DNA from: a phage
DNA: 64,000 nt
Direction: 5' to 3' (one strand)
Sequence record: PZ379176.1
Below, in pieces: positions 1 through 15,214 of this stretch (the first letter of the stretch is position 1; every line of letters starts with the position of its first letter). Made by a program: the position numbers and the translations under genes. The notes under the pieces are model-generated. The model saw only the letters and a program-made list of their open reading frames with translations, did no database searches and had not been told where the DNA came from.

Positions 1-145
1 TGGGTCGTCCGAATTTATTTCCCTTTTGAAACTTCCCATTGCTTGGGTTCATACCACGGCCTTCAAGTTCTTCCGTTACTCCGGGTAATCTTCCTGCAAT
101 CTCAGCTACCTGTGCAGGCGTGAGTTCTCCGTTTTCTCCAAACAT
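1..145 (-). CDS. hypothetical protein, N-terminal fragment (gene continues past left edge)
   Basis: Minus-strand ATG at 145..143 opens a frame running off position 1 (MFGENGELTPAQVAEIAGRL...); absent from ORF track because truncated. Confidence 0.35.
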   Translation of the reverse strand, partial: MFGENGELTPAQVAEIAGRLPGVTEELEGRGMNPSNGKFQKGNKFGRP

Positions 146-201
146 TTTATACTCCTTCTACATTATCAACAACACAAAAAGCCTCCCAAGGGAGGCAAAC
201 A

Positions 202-834
202 TTACTTACAATTACTGACGGACAGGTTAAACATCTTACCTAAAGTAACTATCTCACCCTCCCACGGAAGTTCTACACCCTTCTCTTCCTCTAAAAGAAT
301 AGAGCCGTCGACCAAAAATTTTTCGTAGTCTCGCAGTGCGTCGTCTACTAACTCACTCTTGTGAATCCACGTAATTGTTTCTGTACCATCTTCTTCGATT
401 CGAACATCACGATGCCATTCGTCTTTAGAGGTAATGTAATCATGGAGCATTTCATATTCAGCTTCTTCAATCATCTCAATCATTGCACGAGCATAGTCAG
501 GGAGGTGATCATGTTTAGTAGATTCGTATTCAACTACTTCCAGAGTAGATGGTTGTGTTTTAGTTTTAGAATTAGGGCGAGTAGTATGAATCAAATCTAA
601 CATGTTTTTGTTCTCCGTAATATTTGGTTTAAGAATACTTCCACTATACAAATCTTGTACAGCCAATCCTGAGATGTTTCCCATAGTTTCTAAATGTTGT
701 AAGCTACAGCCAGAACGACACAGCTGTGAATTGTAATCGTTAAGGTCCATTGCTTTAGTGTGGAAAGGAGAACCAGAAGGGAAACTACCTCCATAAACAC
801 CTTCCATGTTAACTGCGATTATTTGATTATTCAT
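202..834 (-). CDS. hypothetical protein (210 aa, acidic)
   Basis: ORF track; long open frame; no recognisable motif. Confidence 0.5.
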   Translation of the reverse strand: MNNQIIAVNMEGVYGGSFPSGSPFHTKAMDLNDYNSQLCRSGCSLQHLETMGNISGLAVQDLYSGSILKPNITENKNMLDLIHTTRPNSKTKTQPSTLEVVEYESTKHDHLPDYARAMIEMIEEAEYEMLHDYITSKDEWHRDVRIEEDGTETITWIHKSELVDDALRDYEKFLVDGSILLEEEKGVELPWEGEIVTLGKMFNLSVSNCK

Positions 835-1081
835 CTGTCTCTCCCTTGCTGTAATCTTTATACGTTTCTACTTTGTAAGTGCGGAATGCTCTGAAGAAGA
901 GCCAACCTAAGCTACTCACATCAATTGTAATATCGAAATCTGTTTCATCATCTAAATCAACAAGACGCCCTAGGCACGTAGCTTCCATCCCATCTTCAGA
1001 GTCACTGTTGATTACGAAAGCATATGTCTCCGTTCTGAACCGAGGCACTATCTCTGATAAAAAGTCTAATACTAAATTCAT
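827..1081 (-). CDS. hypothetical protein (84 aa)
   Basis: ORF track; overlaps start of upstream gene by 8 nt, suggesting coupling. Confidence 0.4.
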   Translation of the reverse strand: MNLVLDFLSEIVPRFRTETYAFVINSDSEDGMEATCLGRLVDLDDETDFDITIDVSSLGWLFFRAFRTYKVETYKDYSKGETDE

Positions 1082-2246
1082 AATACTTCTCCTCTGAATA
1101 AGAGTATAAAGGGCACATCATAAGACCTACCCGTAAAGGCCACCCCACATTAACACCCGTGAGAGTACCTGTATTCATTTTCGTAGTCTTCTTCAGAGAA
1201 GCTACCGTATTCATCTTCTGTCATACATCCCTCTGATAAAGTTAAGACATAAAGGGGACTTCACATTAAGGCACTATCATGTTAAGGCCATGTCATTAGT
1301 CATACTTGATACATCTTGCTATAGAGAAGCAGATGAATAAACAGAAGACTATTACTAACCAGAATACCCATTCCATCAAGGCCTATCCACCCACGTACTG
1401 AATCTCAACTTACCACATCCCTTACACTTCCATGTTGATAGGTACAAACCATGTATTCTTTCATCCCCGTAAGCTTTACGAAGAAGATAGTAATTGTGCT
1501 TACACTTCATCCGTCTAAATACTTTAATTAGATTCATTCCATCTCCACATACTTATATATAAGAGTTTAAAATTCTGATTTGACCGAGTGGGGCTAGCCG
1601 CTCGCCGCGCGTTTCCTAAAAAGGGGAGTCCTCATTTAAAAAAGGGTTATTGGCAATGCCTTTACACCTCCTTCCACGTTCCAGCGTTTCCCCGTGCCTA
1701 CTCCCCGTTATTCTTTCCCCGTGTATACCATCCTATTCATTAGCTACCCGTTTATTTAGTTCCCCTTTACTGAGTGAGAGAAAGGCTAGCACTGTATAAA
1801 CTAGTACAGGCACTACCATAAGAGGCTAATAATACCCATAAGTAATAGCCCACATCCCCCATAGTTTGAATGTAAATAGTTTCAATAGTAATGATTATGA
1901 GTGCAATAATGATATATGTATTAATTAAGTGGATGATTGTAATTCTTTTAATAATTGCTTTTATTCTTTTCTTTTTTCAGCGTGCCTTTGTGAGCGTAGC
2001 GAACGTCTTTGATGTTTGAGTTATACAATTATTTAAGTGGTATATTACTACCGCACTATCTGCCTATGTTTCCCCGTGGTCTGTTCTGCGGTTGTTGTAT
2101 CCCCGTTTGTCCTGATCTGTTGGTCTGTTACCCGTAGTGTTATAAAGTAACAATAAGAAGTAAGCTGATTCTCTGAGTATGGAAAGTTTAGTAAATTAAA
2201 TCCCTTTAGTTTTCAGTGAGTTATAGGAAAGTTAGAAAATAAATGG

Positions 2247-2274
2247 TTGACAGCCTTTTCCTTTATTATATAGT
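2247..2274 (+). promoter_or_regulatory. sigma70-like promoter (TTGACA-N16-TATAGT)
   Basis: TTGACA at 2247-2252 and TATAGT at 2269-2274, about 45 nt upstream of the first plus-strand gene. Confidence 0.6.
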
Positions 2275-2318: not shown

Positions 2319-3191
2319 ATGTCTAAAGTAGCGATTAACCACTTGAACAAAGCAAACGAAAGCCTTTCCTCTTTAGGCTTAACCGTTGGTAGTCCTGATG
2401 CGTGGATGGAAAACGAAAGTGCACGTAAAGGATTCAAAAACTCTGTAATGCTGGCTTGCTTGATCATTAACTCTACTGCGAACGCTTTACAGTGTGAAGA
2501 TGAAAGCACGTTCAAAGAGAACGGTTTTACCGATATGCAGGACGCTATTAATTGCTACATTCAAGCAAATTTAGATAGCTGGAATCAGAAGGATTGGCCT
2601 GAGTCATGCCGCGATGTGAAAGCTGAATTATCCCGCTTGTCTGTCATGGTTGAAGCATGGAATAAGAAAAACAAGAAACAGCCAATCAAGCCTACCGTTG
2701 CAAGTAAGATTATGAAGTCTGTTAATCTGGCAAGTTATGCACTGGTTGCAGCGATCGGTGTTAGTGCACTGGTCACATCTCTTTCTGATAAAGCTATCGC
2801 TAGTTCTACTCCTGCAACTGATGCCGCTAGTGTCTTCTCTAGTTCCATCAATAAGGGTTGGATGATTTGCAACGGTGCGGATAGTGATGGAAGTACTATT
2901 GTATTAAAAATGAAGTTTAGCAACGTAACTAATGATGGCGTTCTCTTTCAGTCTAAGACACTAGACAATCAGCCTAACAATGATCTAGTTCTCAAGCGCA
3001 CCGATAGTGACTCGGATATGGTTACATTTGGCACTGTACAACGTTACGAAGACGTTAAAGCTGTAACCAATCTAGTGAGTTATGGCCCGATCAATGAGTC
3101 GATGATTGCTACCACTGTTTACAATAACGCTAATAACGCTGTTTATACCGTTCACGTTAGTTTAGCCAACTGTATTAAGGCTAGTAAGTAA
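2319..3191 (+). CDS. hypothetical early protein with one internal hydrophobic helix
   Basis: ORF track; ATG preceded by AAGGAA; hydrophobic stretch LASYALVAAIGVSALVTSL. Confidence 0.6.
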   Translation: MSKVAINHLNKANESLSSLGLTVGSPDAWMENESARKGFKNSVMLACLIINSTANALQCEDESTFKENGFTDMQDAINCYIQANLDSWNQKDWPESCRDVKAELSRLSVMVEAWNKKNKKQPIKPTVASKIMKSVNLASYALVAAIGVSALVTSLSDKAIASSTPATDAASVFSSSINKGWMICNGADSDGSTIVLKMKFSNVTNDGVLFQSKTLDNQPNNDLVLKRTDSDSDMVTFGTVQRYEDVKAVTNLVSYGPINESMIATTVYNNANNAVYTVHVSLANCIKASK

Positions 3192-3216: not shown

Positions 3217-3483
3217 ATGGCTATCAAAGAAGTTAAGTTATCAAACGGCTTTTCTTGTTTTGTTGGTGGGCAATCTATCGAGTTTAATACACTTGATGGT
3301 CAGATAATCTTGCCTGTTATCACTTTTTGCAGGATGGAATATCAGCCTCTTAAAGATTGGCTAGCCTTTGCTGATTTCGAAATTACCCGCGATGATTTCA
3401 GATCAATCTATATTGACGGTGATTTGTCGCTGGCTAACCTGCTTAATCATGGTCTGATTGGGGATGATACCAATGGGAAATGA
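3217..3483 (+). CDS. hypothetical protein (88 aa)
   Basis: ORF track; SD-like AGGAG upstream. Confidence 0.5.
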   Translation: MAIKEVKLSNGFSCFVGGQSIEFNTLDGQIILPVITFCRMEYQPLKDWLAFADFEITRDDFRSIYIDGDLSLANLLNHGLIGDDTNGK

Positions 3484-3828: not shown

Positions 3829-4194
3829 ATGGGTGTTATCAAGTTTGTAGTGAAAGTATTTGTAGGCTTCTTTCTGGTTGTTCTCCTGTTAGGTGTCCTG
3901 CTGTCATCTATGGGTAGCGTTAAGGCTGCAACATTCTCCCCTGATACGGTTGACGGTTTACAGTGTACCTATCTCGTAGAGAATTACGAAACTGGTAAAC
4001 AGTCACCTAAAGTTATTATTTTGCATGTAAATGATTTTGATCATGTGCAATCAGATAACAAAGCTATTCTGCTGGTAAATGAAACTACCGGTAAACAAAT
4101 CACGATAGATCACTTGATGCGCTCATCGTTGACGCTCTTTGATGAGTCCATGAATGAAATTGAGTCCGGTAATGGTCAATGTGTAAATCCATAG
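3829..4194 (+). CDS. predicted secreted or membrane protein (N-terminal hydrophobic signal-like segment)
   Basis: N-terminus MGVIKFVVKVFVGFFLVVLLLGVLLSSMGSVKA; SD AAAGG upstream. Confidence 0.55.
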   Translation: MGVIKFVVKVFVGFFLVVLLLGVLLSSMGSVKAATFSPDTVDGLQCTYLVENYETGKQSPKVIILHVNDFDHVQSDNKAILLVNETTGKQITIDHLMRSSLTLFDESMNEIESGNGQCVNP

Positions 4195-4470
4195 GCTTAA
4201 TCTTTCTCCTGTATTGTGCCGTAGTCATGCCTATGGTCATAATCTATCTGATGCTTTAAATCCTTCCTATAAGCCTCGCTATGAGGCTTTTTCTTTTCTA
4301 AGGTGATTGTATACCTTACTCCCTTTTAGCTCATTGTGATGCGTTATAGGCCGCTTGTTATCGCTTTACAAGCCTTTTCCTATGATGTATCACGTTCGCC
4401 CGCTCTTTTACCTTCCTATAGTGAAAAAGTTTAAAATATTTTGTTTTACCCTATTGCATCCCTCACTGAT

Positions 4471-4479
4471 TAATGTATA
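4471..4479 (+). promoter_or_regulatory. TAATGTATA motif (candidate phage-specific promoter element)
   Basis: Exact 9-mer also found upstream of genes at 36225, 42593 and on the minus strand at 52425-52433. Confidence 0.35.
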
Positions 4480-4579
4480 CTTCATTTCATCGGGTACGAT
4501 GTAAAACATACAAGGCAAGGAAACTTGCCCCGCTCTTTAAAAATCAGGCTAGAAAGTGAAAATATTCTTAAAAAGAGTA

Positions 4580-4608
4580 TTGACACCGAAAACAGCCTGA
4601 TATATAGT
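4580..4608 (+). promoter_or_regulatory. sigma70-like promoter (TTGACA-N17-TATAGT)
   Basis: Near-consensus -35 and -10 hexamers with 17-nt spacer, inside a 2-kb ORF-poor region. Confidence 0.6.
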
Positions 4609-5212
4609 GAGCATAGTCAGCGATGACTTAAAAAATCCCGCTCTTTAAAAATATGATTTGTCTTACGGGTGGCGGCGACGTCATTACTATAAGGCGCTCA
4701 GTTAATCGGTAGAATTGATTCCTGATTCATACGTGACGCAGGCGGACAATAAGCAATATCAATAAGCCTTATTTGTTCGATACTTTCAAAAGATTAATGC
4801 TTGAAAGCGCACTAGATTCCCTGAAAGACAAATCAGACTTATCATCTTGCCCTTTCGCATAGATTCACGCGAGATAAGGGAAAGGAATTAAAAGAAGATG
4901 ATAAAAAGAGTTGCAAACGTGGTTAAAGTAGTCCATACTAACCACAAGTTAGCAAAACATCGCTAACTAGTTCCCAAATCAACGTATCGCGGGAAAGGTG
5001 GCACATAGTGCAGCGATTAGTTCAGGTGTAGGCGGCCTGTTAATGAATCAGTAAGCCTTCAATGTGACAGTGATTAGCAGACACTTTAAAAGGCTAAACG
5101 CTCTTTAACAATATGAGTCATAAGTTAAGCCTCACCGCTTAATCTTCAATCAAATAAAGCTGATTGATATATCCTCCCAATAGCGGGAACGACGAAAAAG
5201 ATTAAAAAGCGG

Positions 5213-5241
5213 TTGACAGCGAAAACAACATGATTCATAAT
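5213..5241 (+). promoter_or_regulatory. sigma70-like promoter (TTGACA-N17-CATAAT)
   Basis: Near-consensus hexamers; spacer shares CGAAAAC with the 4580 promoter. Confidence 0.6.
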
Positions 5242-6162
5242 GAGCACTCACTAAGCAAATCATCGCTTCAGTGAAAAGCGTAACAACGGCTAACAGTTGC
5301 ATAGTGTGAGAAAGCACACTGATAGATTTACCGCTCTTTAATAATTTAAACATTCTCCTATATCGGTTGAATATGCTTGATGATAATAACCATCGGAAAG
5401 CATACCAGATAAAACGGCGTAAAACTCCCTAAATTATCAGGGTAAACAGTTTTACATTCCCTTACTGGAAACGTCACCATTGATAAACGGATTCATTGAG
5501 TACACGCAAAGACTTAAGCTAATCGCCCACGGTTAAGGGTAGCGGCGGTCATCGCTAACATGGTGCTACGGTGAAAGAAGTTAATCAGGGTAGGCAATCC
5601 CGACGAATTAACGCTCAATTGAGAGCGGCGGTGAATGGTTAAAAAGTGGCAAATTGCTATTTAACAATAAGGTTTAGTGTGAACGTTTACGATGTGAACG
5701 GCTTGAGATTCATCTTATGATGAAAGTACATAGTCGGTTTATGTAGTAAACTTGCCGAAAGATATAAAACGTCGGAACATTAGACGGTCAATGACTCTTT
5801 CGCAATAGTATCCCGTAGTGGGCGATGACTAGCGATTGAGAGTTGATATAAAAGGATAGGCGAGAGCGAAAGCAAAGTAAACGATATTGCCGACGGTTAC
5901 AATAACGTAACTAATTAGAGTCGGACGCACTGCCTTATTGTGATGATTGATCATCGCTATCAGGTCGGCTTCGTTTATAGCGACTAATTAAAGATACCAG
6001 ATGAAACATCACGGATAAGGGGGCGGCAAGGTTAACTCCTGATAAGACCGCCCCGCTTACCTATAACTACTTACAATGAGTGGTTATAGTTAAGTCAATA
6101 GTGACTTGAATTGCTCATAGAGAGCGGGGCAATAGCGCCCTTACAATTGAAAGGTGAATATT

Positions 6163-14902: not shown

Positions 14903-15214
14903 ATGAAAGCACGAAGAACTATATGGACTCCGATGCAGATTGAAAATCTTCGGAGACTAATCAAAGAGTACTCGGTTCAAGAAGTTGCTCAGATTATGAA
15001 TGTAACGGAGAATGCAGTTAACGCAGCTTGTACTAAATTCGGAATATCAAGAGCTTCAATCCGAGTTAAATGGTCTGAAGAAGAAGACCAGTTCCTTATC
15101 CGTAATGCTGGGTTCATGTCTATTCAGAGAATGGCTGACATGCTCGGTAGAAGTTATGCTGCTGTACAGAACAGAGCATGTATGCACCTTAACATTAGCC
15201 TCAAACTTAAATAG
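14903..15214 (+). CDS. DNA-binding protein with two helix-turn-helix-like repeats
   Basis: Two W-x-E-E-[LD] repeats each followed by HTH-like segment. Confidence 0.45.
   Translation: MKARRTIWTPMQIENLRRLIKEYSVQEVAQIMNVTENAVNAACTKFGISRASIRVKWSEEEDQFLIRNAGFMSIQRMADMLGRSYAAVQNRACMHLNISLKLK

Follow-up and report, generated by a model that had tools for sequence, protein, structure and literature searches.

Oriented CCCGT boxes around the direct terminal repeat of a phiEco32-like podophage

The genome-terminus locus

The 64,000-nucleotide stretch of phage DNA analysed here (sequence record PZ379176.1; hereafter the window, 42% GC) contains, between a leftward and a rightward set of genes, a locus that matches the ends of the packaged genome of phage phiEco32 and carries ten copies of a short oriented box, [A/C]CCCGT. 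The region around the boxes has matches at 80-98% identity in 96 phage records. Nearly all are ~76-78-kb podophages of E. coli or Shigella from the genus Kuravirus and sister genera within the Gordonclarkvirinae; the relatives were taken from GenBank phage records, and a scan of IMG/VR with the 290-amino-acid early protein gave only 3 loci. The gene order of the window is that of phiEco32 in reverse, and the divergence of leftward and rightward genes described in an initial annotation is correct. The principal features of the locus are as follows (DTR, direct terminal repeat; ORF, open reading frame; TerS and TerL, small and large terminase).

1-1081, minus strand: leftward genes, homologues of phi32_4/5, preceding the putative TerS, TerL and portal genes
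1376-1537, minus strand: small conserved ORF of 53 amino acids, homologue of phi32_1 (PHROG 7696, E=1e-15)
1582-1611: GC-rich island GACCGAGTGGGGCTAGCCGCTCGCCGCGCG, 80% GC, straddling the DTR boundary that matches the right genome end
1593-1598: GCTAGC with a predicted cut at 1595/1596 (GCT/AGC), right end of the mature genome, where the phiEco32, SU10 and NC-B records end
1596-1787: DTR of 192 bp, equivalent of the 193-bp DTR of phiEco32
1617-1646, plus strand: direct repeat TAAAAAGGGG - 10 nt - TAAAAAAGGG, read from the sequence, inside the conserved DTR block
1785-1790: GCTAGC with a predicted cut at 1787/1788 (GCT/AGC), left end of the mature genome, where the phiEco32 and KM01 records start and the ES17 record ends
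2319-3191, plus strand: first rightward gene, an early gene homologous to phi32_128

The genes on the phi32_4/5 side and the phi32_128 gene are at opposite ends of the linear phiEco32 genome and adjoin here; for this reason the window, judged by its gene order, is a circularly permuted assembly running across the genome ends of a phiEco32-like (Kuravirus) phage, and the terminal repeat is accordingly present as a single collapsed copy, the only one in the 64 kb. The site lies between the first leftward small genes (phi32_1 onwards) and the phi32_128 homologue, beside the TerS-TerL-portal module. The 1.1-kb gap between the two gene sets is not wholly non-coding: the minus-strand ORF at 1376-1537 is a conserved gene, which leaves a non-coding part of ~780 bp (1538-2318).

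The phiEco32 record begins and finishes with the same exact 193-bp repeat; in the alignment the first base of the record corresponds to window position 1787 and the last to 1596, and either end shares about 80-88% identity with 1596-1787 over the full length of the repeat. Other records begin or stop at the same places: those of SU10 and NC-B end at the position matching 1596, that of 4E8, in which the DTR is annotated, ends within a few bases of it, and the start of KM01 and the end of ES17 both fall at the equivalent of 1787/1788. The DTR of phiEco32 was mapped experimentally (PMC4281155, PMC9965538), SU10 reads have sharp, blunt ends (PMC4281155), DTRs of 192-193 bp are described in phiEco32, SU10 and YF01 (PMC4281155, PMC9965538), and long reads of YF01 together with similarity searches extended DTRs of 192-193 bp to 30 phages (PMC9965538). 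With the ends of the window phage placed by the record ends of relatives and this published mapping, the interval 1596-1787 is almost certainly a Kuravirus-type DTR, that is, a genome terminus. A packaging or terminal-repeat signal had been one of the options of the initial annotation, which advised comparison with the terminal regions of relatives; that comparison places the termini here and finds the repeats conserved. The terminus and its DTR are already known for Kuravirus, and the correspondence with phiEco32, SU10 and YF01 extends to homologous sequence (about 88% identity), a length of 192 versus 193 bp, the same place between the phi32_1 and phi32_128 homologues and a shared internal CCCTTTTTTA repeat. 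Many database records are circularly permuted with the repeat collapsed, and the locus shows where Kuravirus genomes should be opened and the DTR restored.

Both DTR boundaries fall in the middle of GCTAGC, a hexamer found 7 times in the 64 kb. The context GGCT/AG (cut at the slash) is kept at both boundaries in the alignment, with GGCC/AG at the left-end site in 4E8 and EP335. In SU7 the record starts with the same AGCCTTTC as phiEco32, and within its left end (1-240) it has GAGAGGCT/AGG at about 230. This arrangement of motifs suggests that the SU7 DTR may be about 230 bp rather than 53 bp, the length cited in the YF01 paper with a mention of the SU7 authors' own caution (PMC9965538).

The GC-rich stretch reported in the initial annotation is real, although it occupies 1582-1611 rather than 1583-1612; it is the most GC-rich 30-mer of the 64 kb and the only one to reach 22/30 G+C, and its coincidence with a DTR boundary and cut site had been overlooked. 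The island is part of a block of ~85 bp (1577-1659) that is the best-conserved part of the region, with 86% conservation across all relatives; the SU7-like Bas87 and NC-B retain 78% identity in this block versus 41% in the DTR interior. The direct repeat at 1617-1646 is the CCCTTTTTTA repeat described for SU10, in whose reads the homologous T-tracts vary in length by one base, and do so differently in the left and the right copy of the DTR (PMC4281155). Homology strongly suggests that the island and the adjacent GGGGAGTCCTCATTT / TAAAAAAGGG block form the conserved core of the site matching the right genome end. Privateervirus phages, members of another family, have a recognisably similar block, TCCCCCTTTTACGAAA..GAGCGTGCTAGC, in their corresponding gap between divergent genes. 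A hairpin signal at the island was considered and dropped, the DNA fold of 1572-1625 being no better than that of shuffled sequences (z=0.72).

Oriented boxes in and beside the repeat

All ten boxes are on the plus strand, CCCCGT at 1690, 1703, 1717, 2072, 2101 and 1465, and ACCCGT at 1746, 2130, 1129 and 1155; the DTR contains four of them, with three more on each side. The initial annotation had counted at least seven copies in two clusters, and all seven are present, but the copy at 1746 falls outside the cluster limits given there (1690-1730), and those at 1129, 1155 and 1465 had been missed. The boxes are grouped as follows.

1129-1160, plus strand: two left ACCCGT boxes (1129, 1155), conserved in relatives and bracketing a TAATGT core
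1465-1470, plus strand: single left CCCCGT box, within the coding sequence of the minus-strand ORF 1376-1537
1690-1751, plus strand: cluster 1, inside the DTR; CCCCGT at 1690, 1703 and 1717 and ACCCGT at 1746, with spacings of 13, 14 and 29 bp
2072-2135, plus strand: cluster 2, to the right of the DTR by 285-345 bp; two CCCCGT boxes (2072, 2101) and one ACCCGT box (2130), with spacings of 29 and 29 bp

Between 1100 and 2140, [A/C]CCCGT occurs 10 times on the plus strand versus 0.15 expected (Poisson P about 1e-15) and 0 times on the minus strand, while other 1-kb stretches of the window hold at most 2 copies each. An unbiased k-mer scan of 1082-2318 returned CCCGT as the top 5-mer (10 versus 0.37 expected), with TCCCCGT found 6 times versus about 0 expected. 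The only meaningful test of enrichment is this local, strand-specific count, since over the whole window CCCCGT is not in excess (9 found versus 9.02 expected from shuffles). The same concentration is seen in phiEco32, where 7 of the 10 top-strand copies in bases 1-40000 fall within the first 650 bp.

In all relatives the boxes occupy homologous places on the same strand. Among close Kuraviruses the CCCGT columns are 100% conserved versus 88% for the other columns of the DTR interior; in the diverged phages 4E8 and EP335 the figures are 88% for box columns of the DTR versus 51% for their flanks, and 73% versus 31% in cluster 2. Diverged relatives yield a consensus of about Y-n-[C/A]-CCCGT-[G>T>A], with ~8 bp of informative positions. 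The spacings in 4E8 are 32, 28, 30 / 15, 27, 30, and values of about 14-15 and 28-32 bp recur across lineages. Conservation of the box at 1465 may be driven solely by the coding sequence around it. Interspersed among the boxes of cluster 2 are GGTCTGTT and TGCGG elements; GGTCTGTT is conserved across relatives, and the heptamer ATCTGTT is found inside gATCTGTTggTCTGTTACCCGT (2112-2135).

Sister lineages keep the layout with a different word. In SU7-like phages an unbiased scan finds the oriented word (T)ACCCAT, 10 times in Bas87, in the same three places (left of, inside and right of the DTR). In Privateervirus, oriented ACTATG occurs 10-12 times (ACTAT 23-24 times) in a 1.7-kb divergent gap upstream of a TerS-like gene (Cronobacter phage 009, 3324-5054; Proteus phage P59, 3292-5024), with a spacing of about 15 or 30 bp. 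These boxes surround an TCCCCCTTTTA..GCGTGCTAGC block that resembles the Kuravirus DTR-end core and includes GCTAGC; by this resemblance the block may mark the termini of phage Privateer, for which a 'novel ends type' was reported (PMC7881722). A layout common to DTR podophages with a changing word is the pattern expected of sites that co-evolve with their reader, and the conservation of the boxes makes it likely, with considerable confidence, that they are protein-binding sites under selection.

A role at the level of RNA is unlikely, because the boxes are sense in rightward and antisense in leftward transcripts; no known RNA family was found in 900-2500 (Rfam, E<=1).

Candidate readers and possible role of the boxes

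In the published descriptions covered, the Kuravirus DTR is characterised by its length, its identity, the T-tract repeat and conservation at about positions 130-170, with no mention of the boxes, the GCT/AGC context of both cuts or the outer clusters; the model put forward is of T7-like packaging from concatemers, giving blunt ends (PMC4281155, PMC9965538). Recognition, double cutting and duplication at short exact terminal repeats are far more poorly understood than packaging of the cos or headful type (PMC13595956). The Kuravirus family is clean material for this problem, having two cuts in the same GCT/AG context, a strongly conserved core block and a box word that is swapped wholesale between sister genera with the terminase proteins unchanged, a natural swap that permits direct experiments. 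No description of the box arrays, the shared GCT/AG cut context, the box swap between sister genera or the co-varying helix-turn-helix (HTH) gene discussed below was found in the literature covered, which does not extend to the primary phiEco32 papers (Savalia 2008, Pavlova 2012), where an earlier description is possible.

A close architectural parallel is phage T7. Its 160-bp DTR holds 3 copies of CCTAAAG; another 8 lie immediately interior to the left DTR and 2 precede the right DTR, and every copy is on the same strand. A genome with precisely cut DTRs is common to both phages, as is a short word of 6-8 bp repeated in one orientation inside the DTR and in flanking unique DNA, and by this analogy the box array may be the same kind of feature as its T7 precedent. 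They differ in that CCTAAAG and CCCCGT are unrelated, in spacing (about 13 bp in T7 versus about 14-15 or 29 bp) and in the outer arrays, which in the window phage are farther from the DTR. The heptamer ATCTGTT, known as the class II pause/termination signal of T7 RNA polymerase, is near the arrays in both phages, starting in T7 at nt 161, directly after the DTR; its occurrence in the window may be coincidental, as these phages encode no T7-type polymerase. Kuraviruses use the host RNA polymerase and a phage sigma factor instead, so the polymerase-pause coupling of T7 cannot apply to them directly. At cos and pac sites, such as the R sites of lambda cosB and the pac hexamers of P1 (four on one side of the cut, three on the opposite side), a short element is likewise present in several copies that flank a defined cleavage site and are unique in the genome, but the window phage has two cuts 192 bp apart with the interval duplicated, its boxes extend over ~1 kb, and its putative TerS does not co-vary with the box word.

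In the proposed mechanism the locus is the concatemer junction of a phiEco32-like podophage, corresponding to the terminus of its packaged genome. Homology strongly suggests that the terminase would cut at the two GCT/AGC sites 192 bp apart (1595/1596 and 1787/1788) and that the intervening 192 bp would be duplicated and hence be carried on both genome ends. The terminase would recognise the conserved GC-rich block, and the ten oriented boxes would be bound by a phage-encoded, sequence-specific DNA-binding protein, building a unique polar nucleoprotein mark that would give the terminase specificity and direction; such an additional mark is proposed because GCTAGC alone occurs 7 times in the window. 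That the boxes bind a phage protein which thus supplies the concatemer junction with a unique polar mark for DTR-type packaging or end processing is a proposal for which about as much can be said as against, and the assignment of the boxes to packaging or end processing rather than to promoter control is held tentatively, at slightly less than even strength.

Two candidate readers are considered.

2-145, minus strand: start (48 codons) of the gene for the putative small terminase (phi32_6 homologue), which lies immediately upstream of TerL and continues beyond the window
14903-15214, plus strand: 103-amino-acid protein with two tandem HTH repeats, candidate CCCGT reader

Comparison of the window with the whole genomes of 4E8 and SU7 revealed about 20 small early ORFs common to the CCCCGT-type phages and missing from SU7, and among the co-varying ORFs tested a DNA-binding signature is present only in the one at 14903-15214, ten others having no Pfam match. 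Its 103-amino-acid product matches Pfam Sigma70_r4_2 (E=3e-7, above the family cut-off) and PHROG 323, 'transcriptional regulator, D5-like' (E=3e-28), and is modelled as two three-helix bundles with a predicted local distance difference test score (pLDDT) of 75. The gene is present in 76 records and an SU7-type (ACCCAT) DTR interior in 20, and none of the 20 ACCCAT-type records was among the gene carriers listed (16 of the 76 carriers fell outside the matches listed); the 76 and the 20 make up all 96 records that have the putative TerS at >=90% identity, an apparent partition. KBNP1711, a CACGGGG-type phage, carries the gene, and tblastn found no match to the protein even at E<=10 in SU7 (whole genome) or Bas87 (bases 40000-77516). 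On these patterns of sequence and occurrence, the tandem-HTH protein is the best current candidate for the reader. In SU7-type phages a 137-amino-acid ORF (SU7_91, 24427-24840; Bas87_0089, 22276-22689) is found roughly at the position of the tandem-HTH gene, with a weak ProQ/FinO match (E=1e-5, below the family cut-off); it is possibly a replacement reader, or unrelated.

The surroundings of the boxes also include several promoter-like elements.

1147-1152, minus strand: TAATGT, core of the gp36-type late promoter motif, bracketed by the boxes at 1129 and 1155
2038-2046, plus strand: extended -10-like element TGgTATATT, a consensus match only, just upstream of cluster 2
2247-2274, plus strand: sigma-70-type promoter TTGACA-16-TATAGT (11/12 matches), serving the early gene 2319-3191

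The published gp36 promoter motif is tAATGTAtA, and in SU10 a tAATGTAt promoter was placed between coding sequences 3 and 4 (PMC4281155). SU10 and 4E8 have a promoter annotated at the place homologous to 2247-2274, and of the element at 2038-2046 GTATATT is kept in Kuravirus, 4E8 and EP335, with a related TGGTAATTT in the SU7 group. The minus-strand TAATGT core is also part of a second repeat unit, TTAATGTG(R)(R)G..CCTTTA, at 1135-1153 and 1250-1269 (TAATGT at 1147-1152 and 1263-1268), a degenerate third copy of which, AATGAGGACTCCCCTTT, is inside the DTR (1620-1636).

Several observations weigh against a box-bound end mark read by the tandem-HTH protein. Some boxes are placed as regulator sites would be: those at 1129 and 1155 stand on either side of a late-promoter core, and cluster 2 is flanked by the extended -10 element and the early promoter. 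The co-variation of the HTH gene with box type is probably a single clade-level event, about 20 other small early ORFs share its pattern of presence and absence, and in phiEco32, which has the same boxes, the HTH protein is just 64% identical. A fold search with the protein gave no match at E<=0.001 (best E=0.024); the top matches, which are insignificant and merely suggestive, are bipartite DNA binders of the tandem homeodomain, Myb, Reb1 and Tc3 types. SU7-type phages have boxes, and no HTH homologue was found in SU7 or the searched part of Bas87, so that another reader must be present there. The T7 analogy would carry over architecture and not mechanism, because the function of the T7 CCTAAAG arrays is, to our knowledge, unproven.

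The main rival to a packaging mark, and a live form of the regulator-site option raised in the initial annotation, makes the boxes operators of the tandem-HTH 'D5-like' regulator, with packaging not dependent on them; the regulator would act by shutting off or roadblocking early transcription at the two ends and by modulating the gp36-type late promoter before the packaging genes. The promoter-adjacent positions just described suit this explanation, as do the co-occurrence of the regulator gene with CCCGT ends and a short asymmetric box of ~8 bp, which is of a size for a monomeric bipartite HTH protein. Yet no recognisable promoter overlaps the four boxes of the DTR, and no box cluster is seen elsewhere in the genome, including at the other early promoter region (about 4200-6150). 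The same DTR layout also exists in T7, where we know of no homologue of the regulator, and in SU7-type phages, where the tblastn searches above found none, and the co-variation probably reflects one evolutionary event; the operator explanation is considered rather unlikely. A different assignment of the reader makes it the small terminase itself, which would bind the boxes as gpNu1 binds the R sites of lambda cosB or the P1 pacase its pac hexamers. The boxes do flank the cut sites on both sides, the YF01 homologue of the protein upstream of TerL was reported to have hidden Markov model-level similarity to the TerS of PaP3 (PMC9965538), and in Privateervirus the TerS-like proteins are only about 50% identical and the boxes differ. 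Against this, the putative TerS is >90% identical across the CCCCGT and ACCCAT box types, its N-terminal 60 residues differing only by K38R between 4E8 (CCCCGT) and SU7 (ACCCAT), and neither a Pfam match nor a significant PDB sequence match supports a DNA-binding domain in it. Because it is nearly identical where the box word switches, TerS is probably not the reader, and a terminase reading of the boxes is accordingly given little weight and considered very unlikely; from the same comparison, the conserved GC-rich block is a more plausible target of the conserved terminase than the variable boxes.

Iterons of a replication origin, another option of the initial annotation, would require an initiator that binds the two clusters and melts the AT-rich tract between them (1850-1980, 26-29% GC, between the DTR and cluster 2). 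That tract, the cumulative GC-skew minimum at about 1800-1900 and the arrangement of the boxes as direct repeats in a single orientation speak for such an origin. They are offset by the ~8 informative bp per box, compared with 17-22 bp in classical iterons, by the poor conservation of the AT-rich spacer in relatives, and by four boxes inside the DTR and three to its left, far from that spacer; the skew minimum falls where transcription changes direction and is explained equally well by that change. The boxes are tied to the genome ends and not to replication genes, and a Pfam and PHROG scan of the neighbouring ORFs recognised no initiator-like gene; an iteron function appears most improbable. 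More speculative than a packaging mark is the idea that oriented box arrays and a small lineage-specific DNA-binding protein constitute a dedicated end-marking complex on DTR genomes, loosely comparable to telomeres or centromeres, in which a bipartite Myb- or homeodomain-like HTH protein would sit on words repeated at the ends of the chromosome. Between genera the box would then change along with its reader, being CCCCGT in Kuravirus and Nieuwekanaalvirus, ACCCAT in Suseptimavirus, ACTATG in Privateervirus and CCTAAAG in T7. This generalisation is decidedly unlikely, but if true it would also give a function to the long-unexplained terminal arrays of T7.

Neighbouring genes and minor features

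The ORFs neighbouring the boxes have no Pfam match and match only PHROGs of unknown function. The labels 'ABC transporter', 'polymerase' and 'terminase' that PHROG or GenBank attach to small ORFs at 202-834 (minus strand), 3217-3483 (plus strand) and 3829-4194 (plus strand) are without Pfam support and were rejected as probable propagated annotation artefacts. The host-factor sites TACYYMT (NarL heptamer) and CTGTTC (TorR box) were also rejected, as partial matches. The 121-amino-acid ORF labelled 'terminase' has a hydrophobic N-terminal segment and resembles a secreted or membrane protein, and the 53-amino-acid product of the minus-strand ORF 1376-1537 may be a small zinc ribbon, to judge by its CxH...CxxC pattern.

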